Below, piece by piece: positions 31,255 to 62,502 of a DNA stretch of 64,000 nt (position 1 is the stretch's first letter; the number at the start of each line of letters is the position of its first letter). The translations under genes and the position numbers were made by a program. The notes under the pieces are model-generated. The model saw only the letters and a list, made by a program, of their open reading frames with translations. It was not told the origin of the DNA and made no database searches. Source of the DNA: an uncultured delta proteobacterium (lineage in GTDB: Bacteria; Desulfobacterota; DSM-4660; Desulfatiglandales; HGW-15); assembly GCA_963815145.1 (NCBI GenBank), contig CAWFFS010000027.1, positions 448,751 through 512,750 of the forward strand. The letters are read 5' to 3'.

Positions 31255-31484
31255 ACAAAAAGTGATTTTATTAACATTATCTATGGGTTCTGTCCATAAT
31301 ATTCTGGGCGCAATCTTGAAAAGGTATAAAGTAAATCAATAAACCAAAAATTACTTGACATTTCGGCATGCTCAACTCAAAATGCACCTATAAAATTCAT
31401 GGCAGAAGCCATGCCAAATTTAAATTATATTTAGTATAAAGCTTGAATTATCGCTGTAAACCGGCGATTTAAATTATTGAAAAA

Positions 31485-31545
31485 GGCCACGAAGGTCATT
31501 GTCCTCGAAACAGGGACGTGATGTCGTGGCCTTTTTTTTATTTTT
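31485..31545 (+). terminator. Terminator-like hairpin element, GCCACGAAGG family copy 1, inside the divergent ppiD / TonB-receptor intergenic region
   Basis: AAAAAGGCCACGAAGGUC...GUCGUGGCC followed by U8. Confidence 0.55.
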
Positions 31546-31611
31546 AAAAGCCCAAAAATTACACAATATGGATGATTGTTATTAAAAAATTGACTGATAA
31601 ATAAAAATGTT

Positions 31612-31760: not shown

Positions 31761-31808
31761 ATGAGGTTTTAACAATAGGGTTGAAGATAAAAGGGAGAAA
31801 TTTATTCG

Positions 31809-38402: not shown

Positions 38403-38825
38403 TTGCCAAAACGAATTTGTATTATAGATGGACAGGGAGGTGGAATCGGAGCAGCTGTGATCCGGTCCATAAAGAGCAACTTTGAAGAATCAATTACGCT
38501 GATTGCTCTGGGTACAAACACCATAGCAAGCGCCAATATGTCGAAGGCTGGAGCCAACCTTGTTGCAACAGGTGAAAATTCCATATGCAGGACAGTGCCC
38601 GAAGCTGACATAATAATAGGTCCTGTGGGGATAGCATGGCCTAATGCCATGATGGGGGAGGTGACTACTGAAATTGCCGAGGCGGTTGTATCAAGCCCTG
38701 CATATAAAGTGTTACTGCCTTTCACTCAGGAGCCTGTTGAGATAATAGGCGTAGTAAAAGAACCACTACCCCACATGATTGAAAAAGCTGTAAACCTGAT
38801 TAAGGAGGTTTTAAAAAATGTGTGA
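38403..38825 (+). CDS. DUF3842-like protein
   Basis: The N-terminal IIDGQGGGIGAAVI motif and about 140 aa match my recollection of DUF3842. TTG start. Confidence 0.5.
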   Translation: MPKRICIIDGQGGGIGAAVIRSIKSNFEESITLIALGTNTIASANMSKAGANLVATGENSICRTVPEADIIIGPVGIAWPNAMMGEVTTEIAEAVVSSPAYKVLLPFTQEPVEIIGVVKEPLPHMIEKAVNLIKEVLKNV

Positions 38826-39006
38826 AGCAAACGCATATCTTATTAAAGACGGTGAGGAGATTCTTATAATGGAATCTGTAGACATGGTCACGCCTGAAGA
38901 AGAGGAGAGTTGGCATCTGGTAAATATTTTCGGCGAGCAGAAAGACGTAAAAGCCAAAATCAGGGAAATGAACCTGGTTGATCACAGAATCTTGTTTGAA
39001 GCGTAA
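38818..39006 (+). CDS. CooT-family small nickel-binding protein
   Basis: 62 aa beginning MCEANAYL. Cys2 is the Ni ligand in characterised CooT. Overlaps the upstream gene by 8 nt. Confidence 0.6.
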   Translation: MCEANAYLIKDGEEILIMESVDMVTPEEEESWHLVNIFGEQKDVKAKIREMNLVDHRILFEA

Positions 39007-39111
39007 TAAATCCAGGAATATATCTGCAGAAGCTGATTATTTTTGATTTCGGGGCGAAGTCCGAATAGTTTTTAAATATTTAACCATCATTTCATTGCAA
39101 TCTGAATAAAA

Positions 39112-39165
39112 GGCCACGAAGGTCTGTTGTATCAGTCATGATACACGCCCTTGCGGCCTTTTTTA
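39112..39165 (+). terminator. Terminator-like hairpin element, GCCACGAAGG family copy 2
   Basis: AAAAGGCCACGAAGG...CCUUGCGGCC followed by U6, with an inner stem GUAUCA / UGAUAC. Confidence 0.6.
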
Positions 39166-39192: not shown

Positions 39193-40179
39193 ATGGATAA
39201 AACCGAAGTCCTGCGCTCTATTAAGTATGACCTGGTAGAGTATATCCAGGCAAAGGTTTCGGTAGACTTTGGCAATGCCGGACAAATTCCCATTTCCTTT
39301 ATCTATAATAAAAAGACCTATGTAATCAAAGAAGTACTGGGCAGGTTTTTAAAGAGAGATGTTTTTTTATCCAACGGATTTCTGGTGACAGTCAATGATG
39401 GTGATGTTTTTTATATTTATTTCCATACCCGGAATTTTGCTCAACATATGCAAATATGTGAAGGAAACTGGATTTTATGTTTCAGGATACTTAATGACCA
39501 TGAGTTGATGGCTTTTTACAGGGAGGATCGAAAGGTGCTTTTAAATATGACAATGAAGATGCTCGTGGATTTCCACGGACATATTTGCCCTGATCTGGTT
39601 ATAGGTGCAAAACTCAGCGAGTATATCCAGCAACTGGTCTCTGAAACCAGTGGGTTGGATGTCGGTATATCGATTCTGGCACAGAATTGTACTTCTGCCA
39701 TTGATGCTATCCAGGTCCTGCTGGGTACAACCTTTGGAAACCAACGCCTGCAGGTCCTGGATTTTGGGAAACACATCTATTCCCGCTTAATCATCGATGC
39801 TGAAAAAAGTTACATGTTTTCCATGAGGAAGCAGTATTATGGCGATGAAGATGAATTCGAAAACCTGGAACAGAAGATTTTAAACAGCCAGATAACACTG
39901 GAGGAAGCAGTCAATTTTCAAAAATTAATGGACAGACGTATAGAGACGCTTTTTTCTCTGACACCTGCGGAGCTTTTTGGCTGTGACAGCATTGAAAGGG
40001 GACAGCCATTCTATGAAATACCAAGTATTTACCTGACATGCAGCGAGTGCGGACATCAGGTGGTAAAAAATCGATCAATAAATTACCACAATAAAATCTA
40101 TTGCGTCTCATGTTTTCAAGATGTCTGTAAAGAATGTAAACACTACAACGTTCAATGGAAGGAAAAAAACAATGGATAA
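39193..40179 (+). CDS. Fusion protein: unknown N-terminal domain (~115 aa), FmdE domain and C-terminal zinc ribbon
   Basis: FHGHICPDLVIGAKLSEY (FmdE motif). C-terminal CSECGH...CVSC...C.EC. Confidence 0.65.
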   Translation: MDKTEVLRSIKYDLVEYIQAKVSVDFGNAGQIPISFIYNKKTYVIKEVLGRFLKRDVFLSNGFLVTVNDGDVFYIYFHTRNFAQHMQICEGNWILCFRILNDHELMAFYREDRKVLLNMTMKMLVDFHGHICPDLVIGAKLSEYIQQLVSETSGLDVGISILAQNCTSAIDAIQVLLGTTFGNQRLQVLDFGKHIYSRLIIDAEKSYMFSMRKQYYGDEDEFENLEQKILNSQITLEEAVNFQKLMDRRIETLFSLTPAELFGCDSIERGQPFYEIPSIYLTCSECGHQVVKNRSINYHNKIYCVSCFQDVCKECKHYNVQWKEKNNG

Positions 40180-40375
40180 TAACACAAAGGCAAGGATACA
40201 GATTGAACACTGGCTGAAACACAACAATTCTCATATTCAGGAATATGAGGCTTTTGCCTCCTACCTTGAAAAAGCCGGAAAAGAGGAGAGTGCTTTGTAT
40301 ATCCGGGAAATGGCTACCCTGGTTATCCAAAGCAATGAAAAACTGGAAATGGCTCTTGAGAAACTGGTGGATTAA
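40172..40375 (+). CDS. Small helical protein with an H-x3-H-x3-H ladder
   Basis: 67 aa from ATG 40172, overlapping the upstream stop by 8 nt. The segment EHWLKHNNSH places His at i, i+4 and i+8. Confidence 0.4.
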   Translation: MDNNTKARIQIEHWLKHNNSHIQEYEAFASYLEKAGKEESALYIREMATLVIQSNEKLEMALEKLVD

Positions 40376-40397
40376 ATATGAGAGAGATTGTTTTGTC

Positions 40398-41387
40398 ATG
40401 AAGAGCGTTATTGTTACCGGTGGCGCGGGTTTTATCGGAAGCTGCTTTGTCCAGAAGCTCAACAAAGAAGAAATAGATGATATCCTTATTGTTGATGATC
40501 TAAAGGAAAGCGATAAATGGAAAAATCTTTCAGGCCTTCGTTTTTCAGATTACCTTCATAAAAACACATTTCTGGAAGCTGTCAATTCCGATAGTCTGAA
40601 ATTTGAACCCCAGGCTGTTGTATAGATGGGTGCATGTTCAGACACTACCGAAAATAACGCAGAGTATCTGATGGAAAACAATTACAGGTTCAGCAGTATA
40701 CTCGCAGAATGGACAGTAAATAGGGATATACGATTTCTCTATGCAAGCAGCGCCGCCACCTATGGCGGCGGTAAAAAAGGTTTTTCCGATGAAATTGACC
40801 TGTATTCGCTCCGCCCGCTCAATATGTACGGATACTCAAAACATCTTTTTGATCTCTATGCAGATCAGAGCGGGCTTCTTGATAAAATTATCGGCCTTAA
40901 ATATTTTAATGTTTTCGGACCGAATGAATACCACAAGGGTAAGATGGCAAGTGTAGTGTTTAAAGAATTTCACCAAATTAAAGAAACCGGACGAGTAAAT
41001 CTGTTCAAATCTCATCGTGATGATTACTACGATGGGGAACAGATGCGTGATTTTATTTATGTCAAGAATTGTGTAGATGTAATGTGGTGGCTCTTAATGT
41101 ATTCAAAAGCAAACGGGCTTTTCAACCTGGGCACAGGACGTGCCAGGTCGTGGAATGACCTCATAAATGCAGTTTTTTCAGCAATGGGACGAGAGCCCCA
41201 AATCAATTACATTGACATGCCACCAACAATCCGTGACAACTATCAGTATTTTACACAGGCTGATATGAGCAGACTCAGGAAAACAGGCTGTCCTCTGGAT
41301 TTTCGATCTTTGGAAGAATCGGTACAGGATTATATTGTGAACTATTTGCAGACCAATCAACCACAAATAAGCAAACCGGATAAATAG
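40398..41387 (+). pseudogene. hldD: ADP-L-glycero-D-manno-heptose 6-epimerase interrupted by an in-frame TAG at 40623..40625
   Basis: VTGGAGFIGS, GACSDTTE, LYASSAATYGG, YGYSK and NVFGPNE..KG.MASV are collinear with E. coli HldD. TAG aligns with the His of the FHEGAC motif. Confidence 0.8.
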
Positions 41388-45048: not shown

Positions 45049-45567
45049 ATGTCCGAAAATCAGATAACATCAACCATGGAAGATTACCTTGAGACAATAT
45101 TCCAGCTCAATAAAGAAAAGGGCGGAATCCGTGTAAAGAATATTGCCAAAAAAATGGGGGTTAAAATGCCCACTGTTACCAACATGCTTAAAATTCTCAA
45201 TGATAAAGGCCTGGTTGACTATGAAAAACATGAATATCTGGAGCTTACAGATAAAGGTCAAAGAATTGGTGGGGAAATTCAAAAAAGACATGATGTAATC
45301 AGGGATTTTCTTACTGATATATTAAAACTGGATCTTGTTTCGGCTGATGAAGAGGCGTGCAAGATGGAGCATGGCATAAGCACAGAAACGCTCAACCGGC
45401 TTATCAAATTTATTGAATTTGTGCAGACGTGCCCCAGAACCGGTGAAAGCTGGCTTAATTATTTTGAAGAATATTGCGAGAATGGCTTTAAACCCGAAAA
45501 ATGTAAAGAACACATGAAAAACTTTACCGCAGATTGTGAAGCAGAATTAATCACTATTAAACAGTAA
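45049..45567 (+). CDS. DtxR/MntR-family metal-dependent transcriptional repressor
   Basis: MEDYLETIF...IRVKNIAKKMGVKMPTVTNMLKIL...LTDKG is a typical DtxR N-terminal wHTH plus dimerisation domain. The C-terminal part is Cys-rich. Confidence 0.85.
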   Translation: MSENQITSTMEDYLETIFQLNKEKGGIRVKNIAKKMGVKMPTVTNMLKILNDKGLVDYEKHEYLELTDKGQRIGGEIQKRHDVIRDFLTDILKLDLVSADEEACKMEHGISTETLNRLIKFIEFVQTCPRTGESWLNYFEEYCENGFKPEKCKEHMKNFTADCEAELITIKQ

Positions 45568-46302: not shown

Positions 46303-48624
46303 ATGAGTTCAATAACAATTAGCCTTGCAGGCAATCCCAATTGCGGAAAGACCACTTTATTCAACTGTCTTACAGGGGCAAAGCAAAGAGTGGGAAACTG
46401 GCCGGGGGTAACGGTTGAGAGAAAAACCGGTGTTTATAGTCATAAGGGTAAGGAAATAGAGGTTGTTGACCTTCCGGGAATATATTCCCTTTCTGCAACT
46501 TCCCTGGATGAAAAAATATCCAGAGACTTTGTTATATCCAGAGAGCCCGGTCTCATCCTGAATATAATAGATGCCTCAAACCTTGAAAGAAATTTGTATC
46601 TTACTGTTCAACTCCTTGAAATGAAGGTCCCCATGGTTGTGGCCCTCAATATGATGGATATTGCTGAGCAACACAAGATCAGGGTAAATATTGAAAAACT
46701 TGGAAAATATCTGGACTGCCCGGTAATTCCCATTGTTGCAAGCAGGAACCAGGGAATAGATAACCTCAGGGATGCTGTAAACAATACAGCAGTATCCGGA
46801 AAGATCCCCGAAGCAGGCTTTAGATATCCAGCCAAGATTGAACAGACAATAGAGTCCTTTAAAACTCTCCTAAAAGAACAGGCCGTGGCCAGGAATCTGG
46901 ACAGCAGGTGGCTGGCAATTAAACTCCTTGAAGAAGATGAAATGGCAGAGGAACTTGCCGAAAAAATATCTTCATCCGAACTGGAAGAAGCAAGGAAAAA
47001 GATGGACAAGATCCTTGATGATGATCCTGACATAATCATTGCGGACGCCCGGTACGGTTTTATCAACGGTGCATGCAGGGATGCGGTCGAAAAAAAATAC
47101 GAGGTCAGAAGAACCGTTTCGGATGACATTGATAATATTCTACTGAACCGGATTCTGGGCATCCCCGTATTTCTCGTGGCAATGTATGCGACATTCATGG
47201 TAACTATTAATATCGGGGGATGCTTTATAAATTTTTTTGATATTCTCTTCGGGACTGTGTTTGTTGAAGGTTTAGGCGCTGTTCTTAAAACTCTCCATTT
47301 TCCTGCATGGCTTGTTACCTTTCTTGCCGGAGGAATAGGCGGCGGTATACAGACGATGTCTACATTTATTCCACCCATAGGATTCATGTTTTTGTGCCTG
47401 GCAGTACTTGAAGACTCCGGTTATATGTCCCGTGCAGCCTTTGTAATGGACAGGTTTATGCGCTATGTAGGACTTCCGGGAAAATCATTTGTTCCCATGC
47501 TTGTGGGTTTCGGTTGTAATGTACCGGCTATTATGGCTACAAGGACACTTGATAATGAAAGGGACAGGACTCTGACCATAATGATGAATCCCTTCATGTC
47601 CTGCGGCGCAAGGCTTCCGGTTTATGCACTCTTTGCTGCGGCTTTCTTTCCTACATCAGGAAGTGCGCTTGTTTTCGGACTTTACATCGCTGGAATACTC
47701 CTTGCCATTATGACGGGCTTTATCCTCAAAAGCACTGTTCTTAAAGGGGAAATATCCCATTTTATAATGGAACTTCCTCCCTATCATTTCCCAACAGTCA
47801 GAGGTATTCTATATCATGCATATGAAAGGCTTAAAACCTTTATGTTCCGTGCCGGAAGAGTGTTGATACCCATCTTCGTGATACTTGCCTTTCTTAATGC
47901 ACTGGGCAGCAACGGCAGTTTCGGCAATGAAAACAGTAAAAACTCGATACTGAGTGCAGCAGGCCGTGCTATTACACCCGTATTCGAACCTATGGGACTA
48001 ACCGAAAAGAACTGGCCGGCTACAGTGGGGATCTTTACAGGGATCTTTGCAAAGGAAGCGATAGTGGGAACACTTGATGCGTTATATACCTCCATGGCCA
48101 AAGAAGATAGTGGCAAAGAGATGGAAAATTTTGATTTCATCGGCAATGTTGCTGAGGCATTCGGATCCATACCTGCCGCATTCTCTAAACTTGGCAGGAC
48201 CGTGACAGATCCCCTTGGCATAAGTGTTGGTGATGTTTCGAATGTTGATACTGCTGCCGGAGAGCAGGGGGTAAGCAAAACAACATTTGGCACAATGGTG
48301 GCAAGTTTTGACGGAAGGATCGGGGCAATCGCTTATCTCTTATTTATCCTTATTTATTATCCATGTCTGGCCGCCATTTCGGCTATATACCGTGAAACCA
48401 ATATAAAGTGGACCATCTTTGCAGGGACTTATTTAACTCTGCTTGCCTGGGTGGTTGCAACGTTGTTTTATCAACTCGGAACATTCATAAGACACCCCGG
48501 TACTTCGATGATGTGGGTTGTCATCCTGGGGGCGGTCTTTGGGGCATTTGTGTTCGGCATGAAAAAGGCTGCCGGAACAACCCCGGACAGGAAAAGTCGT
48601 TTTCATAAACTTAAAACTGTATAG
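46303..48624 (+). CDS. feoB: Ferrous iron transporter FeoB
   Basis: N-terminal G-domain (GNPNCGKTTLFN, DLPG), then a polytopic membrane domain. 773 aa. Confidence 0.95.
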   Translation: MSSITISLAGNPNCGKTTLFNCLTGAKQRVGNWPGVTVERKTGVYSHKGKEIEVVDLPGIYSLSATSLDEKISRDFVISREPGLILNIIDASNLERNLYLTVQLLEMKVPMVVALNMMDIAEQHKIRVNIEKLGKYLDCPVIPIVASRNQGIDNLRDAVNNTAVSGKIPEAGFRYPAKIEQTIESFKTLLKEQAVARNLDSRWLAIKLLEEDEMAEELAEKISSSELEEARKKMDKILDDDPDIIIADARYGFINGACRDAVEKKYEVRRTVSDDIDNILLNRILGIPVFLVAMYATFMVTINIGGCFINFFDILFGTVFVEGLGAVLKTLHFPAWLVTFLAGGIGGGIQTMSTFIPPIGFMFLCLAVLEDSGYMSRAAFVMDRFMRYVGLPGKSFVPMLVGFGCNVPAIMATRTLDNERDRTLTIMMNPFMSCGARLPVYALFAAAFFPTSGSALVFGLYIAGILLAIMTGFILKSTVLKGEISHFIMELPPYHFPTVRGILYHAYERLKTFMFRAGRVLIPIFVILAFLNALGSNGSFGNENSKNSILSAAGRAITPVFEPMGLTEKNWPATVGIFTGIFAKEAIVGTLDALYTSMAKEDSGKEMENFDFIGNVAEAFGSIPAAFSKLGRTVTDPLGISVGDVSNVDTAAGEQGVSKTTFGTMVASFDGRIGAIAYLLFILIYYPCLAAISAIYRETNIKWTIFAGTYLTLLAWVVATLFYQLGTFIRHPGTSMMWVVILGAVFGAFVFGMKKAAGTTPDRKSRFHKLKTV

Positions 48625-48646
48625 ATACAATTGGAGATTAAATAAA

Positions 48647-48886
48647 ATGATACTCTCAGATATAAAAGAATATTTTGCAAAGCATCCTGCTGCATCTCTT
48701 TCTGACCTTTCCATCCGCTTCAATGTTGAGCCGGAGGCTATGAGGGGAATGCTGGAGCACTGGATACGAAAAGAAAAACTGCGCAAGCTGGATCACGCCC
48801 CTTCATGTCCAAACTGCTGTTCAAACTGCAATTCGCATCACCTGGAAATATATGAGTGGACTGGTAAAAGGAGCGGAACATGTTAA
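48647..48886 (+). CDS. feoC: FeoC-like winged-helix protein with a C-terminal Cys cluster
   Basis: 79 aa. MILSDIKEYF....ASLSDLS..F matches the FeoC N-terminus. Cys cluster CPNCCSNC. Confidence 0.6.
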   Translation: MILSDIKEYFAKHPAASLSDLSIRFNVEPEAMRGMLEHWIRKEKLRKLDHAPSCPNCCSNCNSHHLEIYEWTGKRSGTC

Positions 48887-49224
48887 ATGATCTTCAGTGT
48901 GAAAAGGACAAATTCCGGGCGCTGATTGAAGAAGACATTATCGGCAATGTGGTAGAAAGGCTCAATATAAAGCATAGAAAGCCTCTCATGTCTCTGGCCA
49001 TGGGCAGGCCGGGTGAAAGACTGATTATTGTTGAGGTGAGAGCAGGAAGGCATGCCAGGGAAAGACTCACCTCTCTCGGGCTTAATCCCGGAGACCTGGT
49101 AGAAATAATCAATAACAGCAAAGATGGCAGGCTGGTGATCGGCCATAACAATACACGTGTAGCCATAGGCAGGGGAATCGGAGAGAAAATTCTTGTTACA
49201 GTATCCGATAATATCAAAAGTTAG
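48880..49224 (+). CDS. Second FeoA-domain protein
   Basis: The C-terminal 75 aa read G..L.IVEV..G....RL.SLGL.PG..VEI.....G..VI......VAIGRG...KILV. Confidence 0.7.
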   Translation: MLNDLQCEKDKFRALIEEDIIGNVVERLNIKHRKPLMSLAMGRPGERLIIVEVRAGRHARERLTSLGLNPGDLVEIINNSKDGRLVIGHNNTRVAIGRGIGEKILVTVSDNIKS

Positions 49225-52255: not shown

Positions 52256-53656
52256 GTGAGAATCATGAAATCAATTGCTATCCTCTGCGTGCTGTCTTTG
52301 TTTCCAACAGTGGTGTTTGCTCAGAATATGGAAGACCGGCTGAAACATCTCGAAGAAACACTGAAACAACAGCAGCAGACCATAGATCAACAGCAAAAAA
52401 CAATTGAACAGTTACAAACTAAACTCAATCAAATTCAGCCCGCTGCTGCCACAGGCGCCGGGACCGGCCAGATCACTTCATCCGGACAGGTGCAAGAGCA
52501 AATGAAAGAATTGAACGAAAAGGTGGATAATGTTGTTGAAGCGCAGCGTAAGGTTCTGCCGAGCGAATTCAACCCTTCCATAGGGTTGGTAGGTGAAACA
52601 GTCTTTTCCTATCGAAACCGGAACAGCGATGAGACAGGAAGCGAACGGCCCGGGGGATGGGACGCTTTCCAGCGCTCGGTGGAGCTGAATGCAGCCGCCA
52701 CAGTCGATCCATTCGCCACTGCGTATGTGGTGGCCAACGCCACTGCGGACGCTACGACCAGGGAATCAACATTTGGCATCGAGGAAGCGGCCTTGGAAAC
52801 CAATTCCCTTCCCTGGAACCTTACCGTGAAAGCCGGACGCTTTTTCGGTGAATTCGGCCGTCTGTCTGACATCCACGATCATGAACTCCCCTTTGTGAAC
52901 CGTCCCCTCGCACTCGACCAGTATATCGGCGGAGAATCGAGGACTGACGGCCTGCAGCTTAACTGGCTGCTGCCGACTGAACATTACGTGAGTATTACAA
53001 TGGGTGCAGGAGACCAGTTCGGCGGGGACGCGCCCCCGAATAACGTCGATGGATTCCGCCATGGCAGTGGACTTAATTACTGGGGTCGTCTCTCTACATA
53101 TTTCGATCTGACCCCGGATATCTCCTTTGAACCCGGTGTTTCGGCCCTGTGGAACCCGAGCACTATTGACCGGGGAGGATCGTTTCTCCAGCCTGACGGC
53201 AGTTCGCTGACTGAACGGGAGCGCCGTTTGTTTGGCCTGGATATGGTGTTAAGCTACAAGCCGCTGCGAAATAATCAGTTCAAAAGCCTCACGTGGGGGA
53301 CTGAACTGCTTTACAGCGACAACCGCTATGATGCCGATACGGAAGATACGCTAACCGGCCGAACCGTCGGCTCCCTCGGACTCTATTCATATATTACCTA
53401 TAAATTTCACAGGCAGTGGTCGACCGGTTTCCTCTTCGATTATGTGGAGGACGCTACGGACAGCCATGCCAGGACCATTGCCTATTCGCCGTATATTACA
53501 TGGGCCTTGAGCCACTGGAACCAGCTCCGGCTTCAATATACCTATACCGATTACAACGCTGAATCAGCGGCCACCGGCCTGCGTCCGGATAGCGCTGTTT
53601 ATCTGCAATGGGCCTGGATCATCGGTTCACACTCTCACGGCTGGCAGCAACGATGA
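52256..53656 (+). CDS. Outer-membrane beta-barrel protein with N-terminal Gln-rich coiled coil
   Basis: Signal peptide, coiled coil LKHLEETLKQQQQTIDQQQKTIEQLQTKL, then about 350 aa of alternating strand-like sequence. Confidence 0.5.
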   Translation: MRIMKSIAILCVLSLFPTVVFAQNMEDRLKHLEETLKQQQQTIDQQQKTIEQLQTKLNQIQPAAATGAGTGQITSSGQVQEQMKELNEKVDNVVEAQRKVLPSEFNPSIGLVGETVFSYRNRNSDETGSERPGGWDAFQRSVELNAAATVDPFATAYVVANATADATTRESTFGIEEAALETNSLPWNLTVKAGRFFGEFGRLSDIHDHELPFVNRPLALDQYIGGESRTDGLQLNWLLPTEHYVSITMGAGDQFGGDAPPNNVDGFRHGSGLNYWGRLSTYFDLTPDISFEPGVSALWNPSTIDRGGSFLQPDGSSLTERERRLFGLDMVLSYKPLRNNQFKSLTWGTELLYSDNRYDADTEDTLTGRTVGSLGLYSYITYKFHRQWSTGFLFDYVEDATDSHARTIAYSPYITWALSHWNQLRLQYTYTDYNAESAATGLRPDSAVYLQWAWIIGSHSHGWQQR

Positions 53657-53676
53657 TAATAAAAGGAGAAATACCT

Positions 53677-54609
53677 ATGAAATCTAAAACAATTCGTTTG
53701 TTCATGATACTTATGTTTACCTGGTCGTTGTGCTTGGCTGGTGTTCCTGCACAGGCAGCAAAAATCCGGGTTGTCACAACACTCACGGATCTTGCGGACC
53801 TCACCCGCGCCGTGGGCGGAGACCTGGTTGATGTCAAAAGTCTGGCCACCGGTGTAGAAGATACACACGGGGTCCCGATGAAGCCAAGCTTCGTGCCGTT
53901 GATGAACCGGGCTGATCTGCTGATGCTGGTAGGGTTCGATTGCGAGCATGCCTTTCTTCCGGCCTTGATCGAGGCGAGCAAAAACCCGCGCATCCGGTAC
54001 GGATCGCCCGGGTATATCGATTGCTCCCAGGGAATCGTGCCGCTCAATGTCCCCAAATCGACCGGTCACTTCGAAGGGGACGTACACCCCTACGGCAACC
54101 CGCATTATATGCTAGACCCCGTCCTCGCTGAGACCGCACTTGAGAACATCTACAACGCCCTTTCGGAATTCGCACCGGAGCACAAAGCCGAATTTACGCG
54201 GAATCGGGATGCTTATCTCGCCAGGCTCAACGCAAAGATCATCGAGTGGCATGCGGCTCTGGCGCCGTTCAAAGGGACTGCGTTCGTGTCGTATCACGAG
54301 CACTGGCCCTATTTTGCAGCGCGGTTTGGCCTGGTATATTTCGGCACAATTGAACTGAAGCCGGGTATTGACCCGACTCCGCGGCATATTGAGGAGTTGA
54401 TTACGGCAATGAAGGAAAATCATGTTCCCATCGTCGTACGCGAACCGCAGTTTCCTGAAAAAGTACCAAGGCTTATCGCCCAACAGACCGATGCAACCAT
54501 GATAACACTCCCCATCATGCCTGGCGGAGTACCCAACACTAAAACCTATATCAGGATGATGGATTATATCGTACATACAATTGCTTCCGCTATGAAATCA
54601 AGAAGATAG
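53677..54609 (+). CDS. Metal (Zn/Mn) ABC transporter substrate-binding protein, ZnuA/TroA family
   Basis: Signal peptide. Motifs D.HG.P..PS and H.YGNPHYMLDP are typical of cluster A-I binding proteins. ATG at 53677 has an AGGAG RBS. Confidence 0.85.
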   Translation: MKSKTIRLFMILMFTWSLCLAGVPAQAAKIRVVTTLTDLADLTRAVGGDLVDVKSLATGVEDTHGVPMKPSFVPLMNRADLLMLVGFDCEHAFLPALIEASKNPRIRYGSPGYIDCSQGIVPLNVPKSTGHFEGDVHPYGNPHYMLDPVLAETALENIYNALSEFAPEHKAEFTRNRDAYLARLNAKIIEWHAALAPFKGTAFVSYHEHWPYFAARFGLVYFGTIELKPGIDPTPRHIEELITAMKENHVPIVVREPQFPEKVPRLIAQQTDATMITLPIMPGGVPNTKTYIRMMDYIVHTIASAMKSRR

Positions 54610-54611
54610 AT

Positions 54612-55370
54612 ATGGAAAGGATGCCCGCCCTTTCGGGCGGGTATATAAAACAAACTATGAATGCACCACTTATCACATTAGACAATCTTAGCATCGGTTA
54701 TAACAGCCAGCCCGTGTGTTCAGGGATTTCACTCTCCATTGCCCGTGCCGGCTATACAGCCATACTTGGCGCCAATGGTTCGGGCAAATCCACCCTGCTC
54801 AAGACACTTCTCGGCCTGCTTCCGCCTGTCGCAGGAAGAGTTGAAAGCTCATTAAGGGACAGAGCAATCATATTCGGTTATGTGCCGCAATCGGCACAAT
54901 TCGACCCTATGTATCTGCTTACTGGCTTCGACGTGGCCCTGATGGGGGTGTATGGACGTATCAGGCCTGGCAGGTTTGTTCCTCAACATGAGCGCGAGTT
55001 TACAAAAGAATGCATGAATGCCACAGGAGCCGCTGATCTTTCCCGGAAGTGTTTCGCAGAACTCTCAGGCGGCCAGAAACAGCGCGTACTTATTGCCAGA
55101 GCCCTTGCCACGCGTCCGGATGTTCTTGTGCTGGATGAACCGACTGCCGGTATTGACCGGGAAACCACAAAATCGGTACTTGCGTTCATTGACCGGATAA
55201 ACAAGGAACAGAAAATTACAATTCTGCTCGTCACCCATGACTTCGCAGCCGTGCGCCGCCACGCGCAATACGTCATCTGGTTTTATGAAGGTAAGCTATT
55301 TCACGGTGAAACATCTACGCTTCTCACTGCCGACCGGATGGCGGAAATATTTGAGACAGGAGTTGAATAA
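54612..55370 (+). CDS. Metal ABC transporter ATP-binding protein (ZnuC/TroB type)
   Basis: Walker A GANGSGKST, signature LSGGQKQR, Walker B VLVLDEPTAGID. Confidence 0.9.
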   Translation: MERMPALSGGYIKQTMNAPLITLDNLSIGYNSQPVCSGISLSIARAGYTAILGANGSGKSTLLKTLLGLLPPVAGRVESSLRDRAIIFGYVPQSAQFDPMYLLTGFDVALMGVYGRIRPGRFVPQHEREFTKECMNATGAADLSRKCFAELSGGQKQRVLIARALATRPDVLVLDEPTAGIDRETTKSVLAFIDRINKEQKITILLVTHDFAAVRRHAQYVIWFYEGKLFHGETSTLLTADRMAEIFETGVE

Positions 55371-55372
55371 AT

Positions 55373-56275
55373 ATGGAAATACTGCATCAAATCCTATCGC
55401 CTGATTTTCTTCTGCGAAACTCGCTGTATACAAGCGTATTTATCGGTTTTGTGTGCCCTCTTCTCGGAGTATTCCTCGTATTGCGCCGGCTGGTGTTTCT
55501 AGGGGTTGCTCTCCCTCAGATATCTTCGACAGGTGTTGCTGTTGTGCTCTCACTCCCAATGTGGCTGGGGTTCAGTCTTTCAGGCAGCACGCACAGCATG
55601 CATGCGTTTGCCTTTGCCGGATCGATAACCTTTTCGCTGATCGCTATCCTGATACTTGCATTTCTGGAACGGCGCGGGAGCGGACAGCCCGAAGGGCGGC
55701 TTGGTACTGCATATGTGGTAGCCGCCGCACTGAGTATCCTGCTTCTATCGAAGAATCCCTATGGCGAGATCGGATGGCTCAATATGCTGAAAGGAGAAGT
55801 CATCACCATCTCCAATTTTGATCTCCTGCTGACAGCGACAACTCTTGCCCTTGTTATTGCCATTCTGGCAATATTCCGCAAAGAGTTTCTCTTGGTTTCC
55901 TTTGACAGGGAGATGGCATTGACGCTGCATAGAAATGTCGTCCTTTGGGATGTGTTGCTATATATGCTGATCGGCATTACAGTTTCCATGGCCGTACTCA
56001 GCGTGGGCCCGCTCATCTCCTTCGGATTTCTTTTGATTCCTGCTATGACTGCCCACACGATCGCCCGCAACATGCGTCTATTTACGGTGTTGGCATCTTT
56101 GATCGGTGGTATAGCCGCCTTTTTAGGCTTTTGTGTTGCATATGCGTGGGATCTGCCTGTCGGACCAACTGATGTCGTTCTCCTCGGTGTGCTGTACTCA
56201 ATAACATGGGTAGTCGTGAGGATTCTTCCCGGAGGTTTTCGGTCCTCAGTGCGAAAAGGGAGAGCACCTGACTAG
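55373..56275 (+). CDS. Metal ABC transporter permease (ZnuB/TroC type)
   Basis: 300 aa, about 8-9 TM helices, adjacent to the ATPase gene. Confidence 0.85.
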   Translation: MEILHQILSPDFLLRNSLYTSVFIGFVCPLLGVFLVLRRLVFLGVALPQISSTGVAVVLSLPMWLGFSLSGSTHSMHAFAFAGSITFSLIAILILAFLERRGSGQPEGRLGTAYVVAAALSILLLSKNPYGEIGWLNMLKGEVITISNFDLLLTATTLALVIAILAIFRKEFLLVSFDREMALTLHRNVVLWDVLLYMLIGITVSMAVLSVGPLISFGFLLIPAMTAHTIARNMRLFTVLASLIGGIAAFLGFCVAYAWDLPVGPTDVVLLGVLYSITWVVVRILPGGFRSSVRKGRAPD

Positions 56276-56633: not shown

Positions 56634-57912
56634 TCAAGATACCAGCGGATTGCCGAATACGGCCGTTTTCCCCAGTTCGAGATCTATCTCAAGCAGCCTG
56701 TTATACTTTGAAATGCGCTCGCTGCGGCATAGAGAACCTGTCTTGATCTGCCCTCCGCCCATTGCAACGGAAAAGTCGGCAATAAAGGGGTCTTCCGTTT
56801 CGCCTGAACGATGTGAGACAACAAACCTCCAGCCCGCTTGGCGACAGAGATTAATTGCCTCAATTGTTTCAGTGACCGTGCCGATCTGGTTCAGCTTTAT
56901 GAGAACAGCATTGGTTGTTTTTTCCTTAATACCTCGCTCAATAAATCGTGTGTTGGTCACATAGAGGTCATCTCCGACGATCTGAATCTTTTCACCCAGT
57001 GCGACTGTTTGCTCTCGAAATCCTTCCCAGTCATTTTCATCAAGACCGTCCTCGATGGAAACAATCGGGTATTTTTCGACCCAGACTCGAATAGAGATCC
57101 GTGAGCTCAGGACTTTTCTTCTTGCCTTGTCCTGATTTACTCAGATTGTAGATCCCATGGTCAAAAAAAGAGCTTGCAGCCGGGTCAAGGGCGATAGCTA
57201 TATCTTTTCCGGGTATGTAGCCGCAGGTGTCTATGGCTTCAACAATGACCTCACAGGCTTCATCATTGCTTTTCAGGTTTGGCGCGAATCCGCCTTCATC
57301 GCCTACATTCGTGTTATAACCTTTCTTTTTAAGGATTGATTTGAGGGCGTGAAATGTTTCGGTTCCGTAGCGCAGGGCTTCCGCAAAAGTTGGAGCCCCG
57401 ATGGGCATCACCATGAATTCTTGAAAATCCACGCTGTTATCGGCATGTTTACCTCCATTTAGTATATTCATCATGGGCATTGGGACGCGAAAGGCTCCTG
57501 ATCCACCAAGGTAGTGATACAGTGGCAACCCCGCGGCCTCCGCCGCTGCACGGGCAACAGCCATGGAAACCCCCAGAATGGCATTAGCACCGAGTTTTCC
57601 CTTGTTGGAAGTCCTGTCCAGGTCTATCATCATGCGATCGACTTCAGTCTGGCGGGACGCGTCCATTCCTATCAGATGGGGAGCAATTAGTTCATTGACA
57701 TTCCTTACTGCCTTTAAAACTCCTTTTCCTCCATACCGCCCTTTATCACCGTCGCGTAGTTCAACTGCCTCGTGCTCGCCGGTCGATGCCCCGGAAGGCA
57801 CGGAAGCAGAAACGGTCAAGCAGTTATCCAGTGTAAGGAACACACGGATGGTCGGATTACCGCGTGAGTCCAAAATCTCCATAGCACGTATAGCGGTTAT
57901 TTTAGAGTTCAT
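56634..57912 (-). pseudogene. eno: Enolase with a 1-nt frameshift near 57080..57082
   Basis: The N-terminal ORF ([12 protein letters not shown]..., [10 protein letters not shown]) and the C-terminal ORF ([14 protein letters not shown]) are enolase. The intervening [11 protein letters not shown] reads in the second frame from the shift site with no stop. Confidence 0.9.
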
Positions 57913-57999: not shown

Positions 58000-58385
<386 letters not shown>

Positions 58386-58525: not shown

Positions 58526-59296
58526 TTATTTCATTTCCTTAAATTCGACCCACATAACCGCACCTATCTCCACATCTTTATCCTCTCCATTGTGTTTTAT
58601 TTTTTTATCTGATGTGTTTAACCCGGCAAATCCCCACCATCCGGCCTTTGGAACTGCATATGTAAAAACACCATTTTTGTCTGTCTTGACCACCTGGGTG
58701 ACAAAATAGTCATTTGGCGCCTTAAATTTCCTGTCTTTATTGTAGTACTCTATTTCAACATCCGTTCCGGGTGAAGGCCTGCCGTCCACAAGCACTGTCC
58801 CCTGAAAGACATTTCCTGCATAGAGCCCGAAGGGTCTTGTAAGCGGCACAATCTCGGTTTTTAATCCTAGCGGCTCATCCCAGCCGGCGTCTTCGCCAAA
58901 GGCTGCAACGACTGTTTTTGTATAGTGAATGATATAGCAATCCTCGGTAGGTTCCCAATAGGGTTTGGGCTCCATATAGAACCAGTACACACCGGGTCTG
59001 TTTATTTTGTGGGTGGCTTTCCATGCCTTCCTGTTCATGACCTTTATTTCCTTTAGAGAAGGGATGAGATCGGTCTTTTTACCATTGAGAACAAATCCGA
59101 ATTTTGCAGGTTTTTCCATATCCATGCCCTCCATTTCAAAGGGATGCGAAAAGGATAATGTCAGGGAAATATCCCTTGCATCTCCCTGCATTACCATGCT
59201 GTTTGAGGGAATCAGCATGCCGAAATGGGCAAAGCTGTTGCTGCTTATCATTAAAAACAGAATTGACAACAGGGTTGTGATACTAATTTTTTTCAT
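58526..59296 (-). CDS. nikK: DUF4198 / CbiK(COG5266)-type periplasmic component of a Ni/Co ECF uptake system (NikK-like)
   Basis: Signal peptide ending SFA-HFGML. Later G..LEIVPL, G.V..DG.P and KTDKNGVF, typical of DUF4198. ATG at 59296 has a GGAG RBS. Confidence 0.6.
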   Translation of the reverse strand: MKKISITTLLSILFLMISSNSFAHFGMLIPSNSMVMQGDARDISLTLSFSHPFEMEGMDMEKPAKFGFVLNGKKTDLIPSLKEIKVMNRKAWKATHKINRPGVYWFYMEPKPYWEPTEDCYIIHYTKTVVAAFGEDAGWDEPLGLKTEIVPLTRPFGLYAGNVFQGTVLVDGRPSPGTDVEIEYYNKDRKFKAPNDYFVTQVVKTDKNGVFTYAVPKAGWWGFAGLNTSDKKIKHNGEDKDVEIGAVMWVEFKEMK

Positions 59297-59314: not shown

Positions 59315-59382
59315 ATAAAAAAATATAAAAGCCACAAAAGCAGTGCAGGCATACTTCATGTCTGTAAAAGCCTTCGTGGCTG
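59315..59382 (-). terminator. Terminator-like hairpin element, GCCACGAAGG family copy 3 (proximal in the nikK leader)
   Basis: The minus strand reads AGCCACGAAGGC...GCUUUUGUGGCU, then UUUUAUAUUUUUUU. It ends about 20 nt before the RBS. Confidence 0.55.
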
Positions 59383-59508
59383 ATGGTCCTGTAATTTCTG
59401 ATTGATATTTTTAAAACGTTTGTGAATCAGGACTTCATGTCCCGATCCATAAATAAAAAAGCCCCTTTAACCCCTGAACTTTGTGTCCCCCGTGGCAAGA
59501 AACAGATA

Positions 59509-59568
59509 CAAAAAAAAACCACAAAATCTTTTTTGGAATTTAGAGTTTCAAAAAAGCCTTCGTGGCTG
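59509..59568 (-). terminator. Terminator-like hairpin element, GCCACGAAGG family copy 4 (distal in the nikK leader)
   Basis: The minus strand reads CCACGAAGGCUUUUUUG...CAAAAAAGAUUUUGUGG (about 17 bp), followed by U9. Confidence 0.6.
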
Positions 59569-59621
59569 GATTTTCATTATTTGATAGTACGTTTTAAAAG
59601 GCTTCATGCCTTTTGACGCAG

Positions 59622-59649
59622 AATATAACAGTATATTTTGTTATGTCAA
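59622..59649 (-). promoter_or_regulatory. Sigma70-like promoter with an embedded palindrome (nikK leader)
   Basis: The minus strand reads TTGACA, 16 nt, TATATT. The spacer contains ATAACA-N8-TGTTAT. Confidence 0.5.
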
Positions 59650-59987
59650 TAATATTTTATTTCCGATCTGAAATCCATACAGGGAATAACAGACAGGAAG
59701 CCACCTTCTTCTGGCTTCTTCGGCCCGGATATCAGACCCAATGTTGTTAACTTAAGGAATTCTCCATACAAAAGTATGTGAAGTAAATAGAAAAATAGTA
59801 AAAATAGCGACTGCATTAGTAGTAGGAAAACTGATACCTATTAAGAGAATTGATACGATAAGATCTCTTACCATGTATGAGGCTCAAAAATACATTCTCA
59901 AACCCATAACATTTTTTGGTGAAAAAGTTGAAAATAATAAGAATTCGTGATTCTGAAATAATTACAGACAAAAAGGAGTACAGGGTG

Positions 59988-60068
59988 ATGAAACGCTTGA
60001 CTGGCTTTTTTATGCTAATGATTACAAAAATCTTGTTTGCGGGCTGCATGTCACCAGTTAAAATATAA
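59988..60068 (+). CDS. Candidate 26-aa mini-lipoprotein or leader peptide upstream of the ZIP transporter
   Basis: MKRLTGFFMLMITKILFAGCMSPVKI. AAGGAG RBS 8 nt upstream. Lipobox LFAG|C. It ends 21 nt before the ZIP start codon. Confidence 0.3.
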   Translation: MKRLTGFFMLMITKILFAGCMSPVKI

Positions 60069-60089
60069 TTCAACAAATAATTTTTCGGC

Positions 60090-60915
60090 ATGAATCTGAC
60101 AATATTAAAAATCATCTTTTCTGTTGCTGTTTTTTTTACAGGCGCTTTTGGAGCACTTTTTCCCTGGAGTATGAAAAAGGCATCTTCCGGAGGCCGCTTC
60201 ATGATCTGGGGAGATACTCTTGCGGGGGGTGCGCTCTTGGGCGCCGGGCTTATACACCTGCTCAGCGGCAGTGTCGAAGGTTTCCAAAATCTGGCCCCCG
60301 GATTGGGCTATCCGCTGGCATACCTCCTTACAGGAGCCGGATTTCTTCTGATCCTGTTGATCGAAGCTGTGCTTATGGCCGACCACGATCCCAATAATTC
60401 CCCCCTCCACTGCGGTATCGGAGGCGCCGGCCATGAGGTCGGTGCAGGGCCTCAGACGCAAGAACGACACCCCTATACATTCATTCTTCTTTTAGTGCTA
60501 TCAGTGCATTCAGTTATACTCGGCCTGGCGTTGGGGGCACAGACCTCCCTGACGAGCGCACTTGCTGTTTTTATCGCCATTCTCTCCCACAAGGCAATGG
60601 CGGGCTTCGCGCTTGGGGTCAGCTACAGGCGGGTAAATTCTCCGCTAAGTAAAACAGTACCTATTGCAGCGCTTTTTGCCAGTATGACACCACTGGGGAT
60701 TCTGACGGGCACGGCCGTCAACATGATGATCTCTCCTGCCAATCGTTTGTGGTTCGAGGTGATCTTTAATGCCAGTTGGAGCCGGAACTTTCATCTACAT
60801 TGCCACGCTGGATATCATCCGGACGGAGTTTGAACTTCCGGGAGACAACTGGCAAAAATGGCTGCTGGCCACCTCAGGATTCGGATTCATGTCGATTCTC
60901 GCCATATGGATTTAG
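60090..60915 (+). pseudogene. ZIP-family divalent metal transporter (ZupT-like) with a 1-nt frameshift near 60772
   Basis: TM-rich with a His-containing cytoplasmic loop and the HKAMAGFALG motif. The conserved C-terminus GAGTFIYIATLDII... continues in the +1 frame to TAG 60913..60915. Confidence 0.8.
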
Positions 60916-60990
60916 TGCTCTTAAAGGTTAATTTCCGTTCCAGCTAAAGTCATTTCTTCATGTCCCGATCCATAAATAAAAAAAGTTCCT

Positions 60991-61644
60991 TTAACCTTGA
61001 GCCCTGGGTCCTGCGCCTTTAGCCATGTTCTTCTTTGATTTCATATAGGCAATAACCCCCATCAGCCCAAAAATATAACCTATCCCGCCAATGACCTCTG
61101 TAACAGTGGGACCTTTGTCCTCCCTGAGCAATGCCAGTTCTTTTACAACCGGTTCAAGTTTTGCATCAAGGGCCTTATCCAGCTCCTTCCGCAGTCGATC
61201 CTGCCCGTATGCTACCCGGGCCGGGCTTTCCGACTTAACATTGGTATCAGTATCAGCATTCGCTTCTGCCGCCGGGACCTTGTCTGATACAAACTCCGAT
61301 TTCTTAAACAGATACTCGGCACCATGCCCCATGGATGCATCCAGGACAATCCTGAGGTCAGCTATTTTCGGTATTTTAAATGAAAAATCCCCGTTCTCAT
61401 CGGTCTTACCGCTCACAAGCTCTTTTCCTTGCATGTCAAAGACCTTTACAGTTCCATTCTTGACCTTTATATTTCCGGGAAAATAACTTTCAGTATGGAT
61501 CATATCCCCTTCGGCCCATGCGAACAGGTAGACCTTGTGGGCATAGGCCGTGGAAACATAAAAAAAGAAAACAAACATAAATGTGAGTGCAGTAAAAAGC
61601 CTGTATTTTTTATTTCTCTTTGATCTTTTTTCACTGGTTTTCAT
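60991..61644 (-). CDS. nikL: Two-TM accessory component of the Ni/Co ECF transporter (NikL-like)
   Basis: N-terminal TM, a periplasmic transthyretin-like segment (HKVYLFAW..G.....V.V.D..G......KTDENGDFSF) and a C-terminal TM. Overlaps the nikM stop by 14 nt. Confidence 0.5.
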   Translation of the reverse strand: MKTSEKRSKRNKKYRLFTALTFMFVFFFYVSTAYAHKVYLFAWAEGDMIHTESYFPGNIKVKNGTVKVFDMQGKELVSGKTDENGDFSFKIPKIADLRIVLDASMGHGAEYLFKKSEFVSDKVPAAEANADTDTNVKSESPARVAYGQDRLRKELDKALDAKLEPVVKELALLREDKGPTVTEVIGGIGYIFGLMGVIAYMKSKKNMAKGAGPRAQG

Positions 61645-62245
61645 AAACCGCCTCCAGAATATCCGGTTTTACTTTTTTCAGGAACCTTATGCAGAAAAAG
61701 GTAATTATCCCTTCGATCAGCATTATTGGAAGATTGGCCAGCACAATGAGTTTGGCGACCGTCAGGAATTGCTCCCCTGTAAAATAAAGAGAAAACGCGA
61801 CCATAATAGCGCTTAAAAACACCGCTCCGAATCCGCATAAAAAGGATGCAATAGATGATGCTATAACATTATTACCTTTGACCGCCCGCCCGAACACAAG
61901 GTAGCACACAACTGCCGGAAGGGCCATGTTCAGCGTATTAACGCCAAGAGTAGTAAATCCACCATACTGAAACAGTATGGCCTGGAGCAACAAGCCTACC
62001 AGGATAGCAGGAAAGGCGGCCCAGCCCAGAAATATGCCCACGAGCCCGTTCAAAACAAGGTGTATGCTGCTTGGCCCCACAGGCACATGAATAAGTGATG
62101 CGACGAAAAATCCTGCCGAGAGTATGGCAACCTGCGGAATGCTGTCGTAATCTATCTTTTTGAGACCGATCGTTGTTCCGGCAACTGTAAGGGCTGCCCC
62201 TGAAAGCAGCACGGGTGCAGTAAGAATTCCTTCAGAGATATGCAA
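61631..62245 (-). CDS. nikM: CbiM/NikM substrate-capture component of an ECF-type nickel/cobalt transporter
   Basis: N-terminal MHISEGIL (the metal-ligating Met1-His2 motif of CbiM/NikM). 204 aa, about 6-7 TM helices. Confidence 0.85.
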   Translation of the reverse strand: MHISEGILTAPVLLSGAALTVAGTTIGLKKIDYDSIPQVAILSAGFFVASLIHVPVGPSSIHLVLNGLVGIFLGWAAFPAILVGLLLQAILFQYGGFTTLGVNTLNMALPAVVCYLVFGRAVKGNNVIASSIASFLCGFGAVFLSAIMVAFSLYFTGEQFLTVAKLIVLANLPIMLIEGIITFFCIRFLKKVKPDILEAVYENQ

Positions 62246-62340: not shown

Positions 62341-62408
62341 AATATAAAAATAAAAAAGCCACAAAAACTTTTTCTGGAATCATAAATTCCTAAAAGCCTT
62401 CGTGGCTG
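62341..62408 (-). terminator. Terminator-like hairpin element, GCCACGAAGG family copy 5 (nikM leader)
   Basis: The minus strand reads AGCCACGAAGGCUUUU-(GGAAU...AUUCC)-AAAAAGUUUUUGUGGCU, then U7AU5. Confidence 0.6.
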
Positions 62409-62502
62409 AATTTTTCATTATTTGATGCTACGATTTTTAATAAGGCTTCGTGCCTTTTTTGTGAAGAATATAACAGTATATTTTTTTATGTCAATAATAT
62501 TT
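62352..62502 (-). repeat. Duplicated promoter-leader module, copy 2
   Basis: Collinear with 59509..59656. Confidence 0.85.
62467..62494 (-). promoter_or_regulatory. Sigma70-like promoter (nikM leader)
   Basis: The minus strand reads TTGACA, 16 nt, TATATT. Nearly identical to the nikK promoter. It starts directly after the SDR stop codon. Confidence 0.5.

Follow-up and report, generated by a model that had tools for sequence, protein, structure and literature searches.

A terminator-bearing leader RNA with conserved ANGAA loops upstream of nickel-uptake genes, and its probable role in factor-dependent antitermination

The stretch of DNA analysed here, referred to as the window, comprises 64,000 nucleotides (nt) of an uncultured delta proteobacterium (GenBank assembly GCA_963815145.1, contig CAWFFS010000027.1, positions 448,751 to 512,750). 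Two collinear copies of a promoter and leader lie upstream of its nickel-uptake genes nikM and nikK, and both belong to a family of leader RNAs in which a small hairpin with an A-N-G-A-A loop (P1) is followed by a linker and an intrinsic terminator. The family is found in many genera, its two helices covary, and the genes that it precedes make up a nickel-uptake regulon. We consider it probable that the leader is a cis-regulatory element through which nickel uptake is switched on by factor-dependent antitermination when nickel is scarce. The leader would be a terminator/antiterminator that depends on a factor, and it appears to fall outside every described family.

Two copies of a promoter and leader at the nik locus

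The regions 59509-59656 and 62352-62502, read on the minus strand, had been noticed by eye in an earlier note on this DNA as near-identical copies. BLAST aligns them with 84% identity over 146 nt, and the pairwise alignment which that note proposed, made globally, has 127 identical columns of 155 (82%). In a global alignment of the 100 nt on each side of the two copies, the identity is about 45%, which is background. The duplicated unit is thus bounded, extending from a few bases before the -35 box through the U-run. Every element that had been listed for it (TTGACA, 16 nt, and TATATT; a small hairpin; an AU-rich linker; and a terminator hairpin with a U-run) was found in both copies. The promoters are near-consensus σ70 promoters, each matching at 11 of 12 positions with a TG extended -10 in front of TATATT. 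The small hairpin common to both copies is AAGGC-A(U/C)GAA-GCCUU. The long terminator hairpin opens with GCCACGAAGGC in both and is followed by U9 or U6. Taken alone, the terminator parts fold with -19.0 kcal/mol in copy 1 and -27.6 kcal/mol in copy 2 (z = -3.4 and -6.5, respectively), and none of 200 shuffled sequences folded as stably as the whole leaders.

A dispersed or mobile repeat as the source of the similarity was ruled out, since a blastn search of the whole 5.9-Mb genome returned only the two full copies and, at the same locus, partial ones.

Structure and conservation of the leader RNA

Structure statistics were obtained from an alignment of 38 leaders. All six pairs of P1 have changed on both sides and 93% of the alignment cells pair, while the terminator has eight pairs with double changes. 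For the structure as a whole, the observed covariation score was attained by none of 500 shuffles (0.433 vs 0.218), and controls in which the structure was slid along the alignment reached at most 0.163. The P1 loop follows the consensus Y-A-N-G-A-A-R with five unpaired bases, the A being present in 33 of the 38 leaders, the G in 37, and the final two A residues in 37 and 38, respectively. The pair that closes the loop is C-G, U-A or U-G.

The two arms of the terminator are not conserved alike. The columns GCCANGAAGGC of the 5' arm are conserved in 30-38 of the 38 leaders, whereas their partners in the 3' arm wander between C, U, A and G. More than base pairing must therefore constrain the 5' arm. 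Across the family, the terminator 5' arm may be written as (A/G)GCC-ANGAA-GG(C/U), then the U-run, with GCC-ACGAA-GGC nearly invariant. This arm can fold upon itself as a mini-hairpin of 3 bp, denoted P2, that presents the same ANGAA loop as P1. When alignments were cut before the 3' arm and submitted to RNAalifold, P1 and P2 were predicted together with no other conserved helix, and none that could serve as an intrinsic antiterminator. P2 is pairable in 95-100% of the sequences. Between P1 and P2 lies a linker of 27-47 nt (median 34.5) whose sequence is not conserved. A pairing between the P1 loop and the 3' arm of the terminator was rejected by inspection, given that the loops CACGAAG, CAGGAAG, UGUGAAG and UACGAAA occur with no matching changes in the 3' arm.

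Distribution and downstream genes

A covariance model (R1) was built from 14 aligned leaders and includes P1 and the terminator. Within the genome under study (G000, 89.7% complete), three nik leaders matched strongly and a leader before an FmdE-domain gene matched weakly. In a sample of the family, 43 of 61 genomes contain the leader. In a sample of the class, restricted to 124 genomes that are at least 90% complete, it was found in 81 genomes, representing 53 of 69 genera and five of six families. The matches range from 28 to 56% in G+C content. In other genera, the same design with other stem sequences is seen ahead of NikM orthologues.

At the 29 best loci outside the genome under study, the first downstream gene encodes NikM in 11 cases, a FecCD permease in two, FmdE in two, and a NikA-like family-5 binding protein in two; NikL, a methyltransferase, DUF3842, and a small unnamed protein that precedes DUF3842-CooT are also found at these loci. 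These genes constitute a nickel-uptake regulon. Nickel import of the FecCD type and by TonB-dependent receptors is known from Helicobacter (cited in PMC11247825). The leader is always co-oriented with the transport genes and immediately 5' of them, and in close relatives, the distance from the U-run to the nikM start codon is only 13-29 nt. Since this gap leaves no space for a second promoter, read-through into the nik genes must be the regulated step. As for the small protein, it is 52-64 aa in length, lies between the leader and DUF3842/CooT at three loci (L138, L139 and L147, from G064, G011 and G063, respectively), contains the motif YTCxDYRxEMLLLxLxxRL, and has no Pfam family.

The window itself contains five leader copies within 31 kb, all of which bear an ANGAA-type terminator 5' arm and a U-run. 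Three belong to the nik genes. The other two were found by a pattern scan of the genome for the same type of terminator. One heads an operon that encodes a TonB receptor, methyltransferase, FecCD, ABC, PBP, FmdE, DUF3842 and CooT; it is not listed by R1 at E <= 1 and was assigned by pattern and fold. The other heads a second FmdE-domain gene (FmdE2).

A known RNA family was ruled out. A search of the whole window against Rfam 15 at the gathering score identified two tRNAs only, and around the leaders, relaxing the threshold to E <= 10 gave only chance matches such as rimP on the wrong strand, with RF02683 not matched. In full-text literature searches on nikM riboswitches, nickel RNA motifs, DUF3842 and CooT, no account of the leader was found, and it is absent from the nickel paper on cable bacteria. 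A widespread ANGAA leader family of nickel-uptake genes has apparently gone undescribed so far.

A model of antitermination and its alternatives

P2 is predicted to contribute -2 to -4 kcal/mol as compared to -16 to -29 kcal/mol for the terminator. With P2 being so much weaker, a stabilizing factor would be needed for it to persist. Considering the strength of the terminator and the lack of an antiterminator made of RNA alone, termination would be the default state and regulation would consist of antitermination by whatever stabilizes P2. In the model we favor, a strong σ70 promoter would start the RNA, and its first element would be P1, in which a Y-R pair closes the A-N-G-A-A loop. After the non-conserved linker would come the intrinsic terminator, whose 5' arm GCC-ACGAA-GGC could fold as P2 and show a like ANGAA loop before the 3' arm is transcribed. 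Unaided, the terminator would win by a wide margin, leaving the nik genes off and a terminated leader of about 110 nt as the expected default product. At low nickel, both loops would be bound by a factor acting in trans, probably a protein that is a dimer or has two sites; P2, held in place by the factor, would block the terminator, and RNA polymerase would read into nikM-nikL or nikK. The expectation that the factor binds at low nickel follows from the target genes, which encode an importer. A pair of similar loops, each on its own hairpin and with a linker between them that matters little, would be typical of the target of a dimeric or two-site protein, and ANTAR regulators have been shown to follow this logic (PMC3369931).

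A direct riboswitch would dispense with the protein. In this alternative, the leader senses Ni2+, Co2+ or a nickel-related small molecule through its two ANGAA loops and the choice between P2 and the terminator is made by the RNA itself. The NiCo riboswitch is a precedent for the sensing of nickel and cobalt by RNA, no regulator gene is consistently adjacent to the leader, the loops and the 5' arm hardly vary from genus to genus, and the regulon is strictly one of metal-uptake genes. The conserved part of the leader, however, amounts to two simple hairpin loops, and with a linker that varies from 27 to 47 nt there is no conserved junction or pocket. A P2 of 3 bp cannot outcompete the terminator unaided, and if Ni2+ were to stabilize it, uptake would be turned on when nickel is plentiful, the opposite of what an importer requires. 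Neither RF02683 nor any other Rfam model matched. A direct riboswitch is for these reasons thought unlikely.

The earlier note had proposed that each module by itself yields an RNA of about 110 nt, such that the two could be paralogous small RNAs (sRNAs) with regulated read-through into the nik genes. The promoter-leader module with its intrinsic terminator and the regulated read-through are retained in our model. The notion of two paralogous sRNAs proved too narrow, as the window has five copies in all, of which these are two, and the family, which spans many genera, is cis-regulatory in character. A stricter form of the idea, in which the products of about 110 nt act independently in trans and nik expression is incidental read-through, draws on the strong promoter, the strong terminator and the lack of an intrinsic antiterminator, from which the terminated RNA would probably be abundant. 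Yet the element invariably shares the direction of the transport genes and lies right before them, the 13-29 nt that often separate the U-run from the start codon leave no space for another promoter, copies also occur inside operons between nikL and nikK, and the linker, which is the likeliest seed region, is not conserved. Independent sRNAs are accordingly a rather improbable explanation, less so a dual role in which the leaders may act both in cis and in trans.

Ribosome-mediated attenuation by way of a leader peptide was also considered. Short frames that start with AUG are present in the linker of both window copies, but the two copies use different frames, ten of the 38 leaders have no AUG frame of at least five codons, and elsewhere the positions and frames differ. 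With no conserved leader open reading frame, the leader peptide was rejected and its likelihood is next to nil.

Candidate proteins that may read the leader

If antitermination depends on a factor, the reader could be a new nickel-responsive RNA-binding antiterminator, either the DUF3842-CooT pair, with CooT as a nanomolar nickel sensor, or another protein. This remains a tentative suggestion. CooT from R. rubrum, a dimer, has a Kd of 9 nM for the one Ni that it binds (review PMC6006190). Of the 62 DUF3842 genes in the family, 49 have cooT after them at a distance of 16-26 nt, and 11 of 82 leaders lie no more than 1 kb upstream of a DUF3842-CooT pair. CooT is present in every one of the 81 class genomes that bear the leader and DUF3842 in 80 of them, and the seven class genomes without CooT, which represent about three lineages only, are all without the leader. 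Since both proteins are near-universal in the class and their absences are few, the co-occurrence is weak and uninformative. DUF3842 and CooT may simply be members of the nickel-handling regulon.

Several observations count against a protein-assisted P2. The helix is too conserved to be examined by covariation: shuffles equal the observed values and only two compensatory cases were found. One of these, GUC-AUGAA-GAC from G034, counts in favor of P2, which it keeps while putting an A-A mismatch into the terminator. The ANTAR dual-hairpin leaders (targets of EutV, NasR and AmiR; Ramesh et al. 2012, PMC3369931) have hexaloops with A1 and G4 and a linker of 5-12 nt whose length matters, whereas the ANGAA leader has a linker of 27-47 nt, three to four times as long. 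Two of the five window copies score poorly or not at all with R1. As for the reader, none was found among the ANTAR, CooT and DUF3842 candidates. The ANTAR domain (PF03861) was not matched in the genome under study, in a search that was also blank in all 14 control genomes and so lacked a positive control. The three CooT copies are acidic (isoelectric points of 4.4-4.7), which weakens the case for CooT as an RNA binder. A search by sequence for a solved homologue of DUF3842 gave none, the best hit being uL1 with a non-significant E value of 0.57. The AlphaFold model of DUF3842 (pLDDT = 80.6) presents a generic Rossmann-like fold, for which the best matches in the PDB were the NAD domains of alcohol dehydrogenases and FtsZ (TM = 0.46-0.55). 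DUF3842 as an RNA binder is unsupported by a fold of this kind.

A second DUF3842-CooT pair is located outside the window (C15:440329-440910, minus strand) with no ANGAA leader upstream. The genome thus has one pair that is controlled by a leader and one that is leaderless. A third CooT is encoded at C7:367469-367648, after genes for a histidine kinase and a small protein rich in His.

Relationship to NikR

The nikK copy contains, within its promoter spacer, the perfect inverted repeat ATAACA-N8-TGTTAT that the earlier note had pointed out; in the nikM copy, the left arm reads ATAAAA. The further suggestion that the repeat is a NikR operator was not sustained. NikR_C (PF08753) had no match in the genome under study, which is 89.7% complete, while the same search was positive in five control genomes. 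The domain was found in five of 61 family genomes and in four of 124 class genomes, leaving 120 of the latter with no match. The deltaproteobacterial NikR box is an inverted repeat of 27-28 bp, GTGTTAC-N13/14-GTAACAC (Rodionov et al. 2004, PMC545781), from which ATAACA-N8-TGTTAT differs in both spacing and half-sites. The palindrome is also not kept in the orthologous promoters of G010, G008, G003 and G009, which are from the same genus. On these three grounds, the NikR operator was rejected.

In a broader version of DNA-level control, P1 and the promoter palindrome would be operators for NikR or some other metal-dependent repressor, and the terminator would be constitutive and leaky. The palindrome does overlap the spacer of the nikK-copy promoter, and P1 is an inverted repeat situated just past the predicted start, which is a classical operator position. 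Against this stand the absence of a NikR_C match in the genome and its rarity in the class, a spacing and half-sites that are unlike the NikR box, and a palindrome that orthologous promoters lack and that the nikM copy has only in degenerate form. Moreover, the stem of P1 varies freely with compensation while its asymmetric ANGAA center is conserved. A covarying stem around a conserved asymmetric center is the signature of an RNA hairpin and not of a DNA palindrome bound by protein. Control at the DNA level is in our estimation very improbable.

Within the genus, the leader and NikR are complementary in their distribution. G000, G001, G003, G008, G009 and G010 have the leader and CooT and no NikR, with DUF3842 in all but G009. 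G004, G005 and G006 have NikR with NikR-box-like sites nearby and no leader, CooT or DUF3842. G002 and G007 have none of the four, and in these, nikM directly follows an SDR gene. In G013 (locus L155, contig C137), which is among the few relatives with NikR, a NikR-box-like site, GTATTAT-N14-GTAACAC, was observed at position 1762 directly 5' of an FmdE gene (1823-2434) and beside nikR. FmdE is therefore placed in the nickel regulon under either type of regulator.

Origin of the duplication and features of the window

The names given to the nik genes in the earlier note agree with their Pfam and NCBIfam matches (Table 1). Gene order in G010 and G009 is leader-nikM-nikL-leader'-nikK, where the orthologous leaders sit between nikL and nikK and the operon is unsplit. 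In the window, an ancestral operon of this order has been split by an insert of about 1.5 kb that bears a ZIP-family transporter gene. A 56-nt direct repeat (repeat family D3; 59433-59488 and 60956-61011; 79% identity) flanks the insert. Past nikL, at 61011-60956, the sequence agrees with the first part of leader' as far as GAAG in the P1 loop of that leader, and then gives way to the ZIP gene, which is on the opposite strand. These 56 nt are found a second time at 59488-59433 and are followed there by the full leader' and nikK. The break point of the insert is thus inside the P1 loop of the intergenic leader'. From the layout of the repeat and the unsplit loci of G010 and G009, it is clear that the insert severed nikK from the nikM promoter. 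Subsequently, nikK acquired a duplicate of the nikM promoter and leader, set before the old intergenic leader, and it is now headed by two complete leaders in tandem. The duplicated promoter-leader pair has diverged to 82-84% identity.

The ZIP gene (60090-60915, plus strand), an enolase gene (56634-57912, minus strand) and a NAD-epimerase gene (40245-41384, plus strand) are each split over two adjacent frames, with the C-terminus of ZIP resuming in another frame to approximately 60915. Indel errors in the assembly, and not pseudogene formation, probably account for the split frames. Just 3' of nikK, there is an open reading frame of 52 aa (58227-58385, minus strand) which had been flagged as cysteine-rich and has no Pfam match.

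The part of the window from 31800 to 62250 may be described as a metal-uptake island. It holds the TonB/FecCD/FmdE/DUF3842/CooT operon, the second FmdE gene, nikK, ZIP and nikL-nikM, along with a DtxR-family regulator, FeoB/FeoA and ZnuABC. Approximately 270 nt (31540-31808, plus strand) separate the terminator of the TonB-operon leader from the start codon of the receptor, a region in which further structure had been suspected. Outside the window, a long hairpin (C8:280470-280640, minus strand) contains three CAYGAAG repeats with their complements; it lies after the end of a gene and is followed by an A-run, not a U-run.

Table 1. Features of the window, with positions numbered from its first nucleotide. 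Scores in bits refer to the covariance model R1.
Feature	Position	Strand	Remarks
Predicted promoter, nikK copy (TTGACA, 16 nt, TG-n-TATATT)	59622..59649	-	11/12; includes the ATAACA-N8-TGTTAT palindrome
Leader copy 1 (nikK side)	59506..59622	-	91.3 bits, copy in model seed; fold -30.9 kcal/mol, z -4.55
Copy 1, P1	59614-59596	-	AAAAGGC-AUGAA-GCCUUUU; linker after it
Copy 1, P2/terminator 5' arm	59566-59556	-	GCCACGAAGGC; 3' arm ends at 59519; U9 at 59518-59510
Predicted promoter, nikM copy (TTGACA, 16 nt, TG-n-TATATT)	62467..62494	-	11/12
Leader copy 2 (nikM side)	62346..62466	-	95.1 bits, copy in model seed; fold -33.6 kcal/mol, z -4.84
Copy 2, P1	62456-62442	-	AAGGC-ACGAA-GCCUU; linker after it
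Copy 2, 5' arm	62406-62396	-	GCCACGAAGGC; 3' arm ends at 62358; U-run at 62357-62346
Leader', tandem second leader directly 5' of nikK	59319..59453	-	Ancestral nikL-nikK intergenic leader; 56.5 bits, outside seed; fold -38.2 kcal/mol, z -4.5
Leader', P1'	59447-59424	-	GGAUCGGGAC-AUGAA-GUCCUGAUUC
Leader', 5' arm	59380-59370	-	GCCACGAAGGC; 3' arm at 59341-59331; U-run at 59330-59317
nikM (CbiM/NikM)	61631-62245	-	Pfam CbiM E 1.4e-59; NCBIfam NF004905 E 3.8e-86
nikL	60991-61644	-	NCBIfam NikL family NF058648 E 1.3e-50
nikM + nikL unit	60991..62245	-	Read through leader copy 2
nikK (DUF4198)	58526..59296	-	Periplasmic component of a NikKMLQO-type importer; Pfam DUF4198 E 9.6e-65
Insert of ~1.5 kb splitting nikM-nikL-nikK	59489..60955		Carries plus-strand ZIP-family gene, duplicated promoter and leader copy 1
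ZIP-family transporter gene in insert	60090 to ~60915	+	Pfam Zip; apparently frameshifted
Leader of TonB receptor-methyltransferase-FecCD-ABC-PBP-FmdE-DUF3842-CooT operon	31355..31539	+	Fold -52.2 kcal/mol, z -6.5
TonB-operon leader, promoter	31355-31383	+	
TonB-operon leader, P1	31398-31413	+	CAUGGC-AGAA-GCCAUG
TonB-operon leader, terminator	31485-31539	+	GGCCACGAAGGUC...GUCGUGGCC-U8
DUF3842	38403-38825	+	Pfam DUF3842 E 1.7e-50
CooT	38818-39006	+	Pfam CooT E 1.7e-22; matches solved CooT 6FAN E 3e-13; Cys2 kept
Leader of second FmdE-domain gene (39193-40179)	39018..39165	+	28.9 bits, weak match
FmdE2 leader, first hairpin	39022-39037	+	AUCUG-CAGAAG-CUGAU; GAAG loop
FmdE2 leader, second hairpin	39048-39065	+	UUCGG-GGCGAAGU-CCGAA; GAAG loop
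FmdE2 leader, terminator	39112-39164	+	GGCCACGAAGGUC...GCGGCC-U6
DtxR-family regulator	45049-45567		Island
FeoB/FeoA	46303-49224		Island
ZnuABC	53608-56275		Island

Significance and comparison with known systems

Anaerobes rely on hydrogenases, CODH/ACS and other enzymes that contain Ni, and nickel import needs to be tightly controlled. With no NikR found in 120 of 124 class genomes, a conserved leader that bears a terminator and heads the entire uptake regulon offers a concrete answer as to how the nik genes are regulated. With this leader, the known attenuator RNAs would gain a new class, and possibly there would be a new RNA-binding factor that senses metal. If an RNA-binding nickel antiterminator were to be involved, it would be the first nickel regulator that acts after initiation as a combination of protein and RNA, and it would take the place of NikR in an entire class of sulfate reducers and related anaerobes. 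The duplication at the nik locus, which is datable, shows the promoter-leader unit acting as a portable regulatory cassette; the tandem leader pair is also found here.

NikR, as known from E. coli and deltaproteobacteria, has the same targets as the leader, namely nikMLK-type, TonB-dependent and ABC nickel importers, and presumably follows the same physiological logic with an overlapping regulon. The two differ in that NikR acts on DNA at initiation, whereas the ANGAA leader would act on RNA after initiation.

The NiCo riboswitch (czcD motif, RF02683) is built upon a four-way-junction aptamer and turns efflux genes on at high metal. Like the ANGAA leader, it is a leader RNA linked to nickel or cobalt that controls a terminator. 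The ANGAA leader, in contrast, is without a four-way-junction core, precedes uptake genes, and gave no match to the Rfam model.

The PyrR-pyr, TRAP-trp, HutP-hut and LicT/SacY RAT systems share with the proposed mechanism a ligand-responsive trans-acting protein that picks either the terminator or an alternative fold, although neither the recognition elements nor the proteins are related. Termination is promoted by PyrR and TRAP, whereas in the ANGAA leader it would be the default and would have to be prevented.

A resemblance in layout may be drawn with the ANTAR substrates, for which the loop motif is AANGRR and the eut 13-mer is AGCAANGRRGCUY. The ANTAR substrates have two small hairpins with like conserved loops, the second of them made from the 5' base of the terminator, so that only one of the two can form. 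P1 and the predicted P2 of the ANGAA leader would be arranged in this way too, and in both, termination is or would be the default. The ANGAA core shares the A-N-G-purine-purine run of AANGRR. The loops of the leader are, however, A-N-G-A-A pentaloops closed by a Y-R pair with A1 and G3, and not hexaloops with A1 and G4. The regulons differ as well, that of the ANGAA leader being nickel uptake and those of the ANTAR proteins being the use of nitrogen or ethanolamine.

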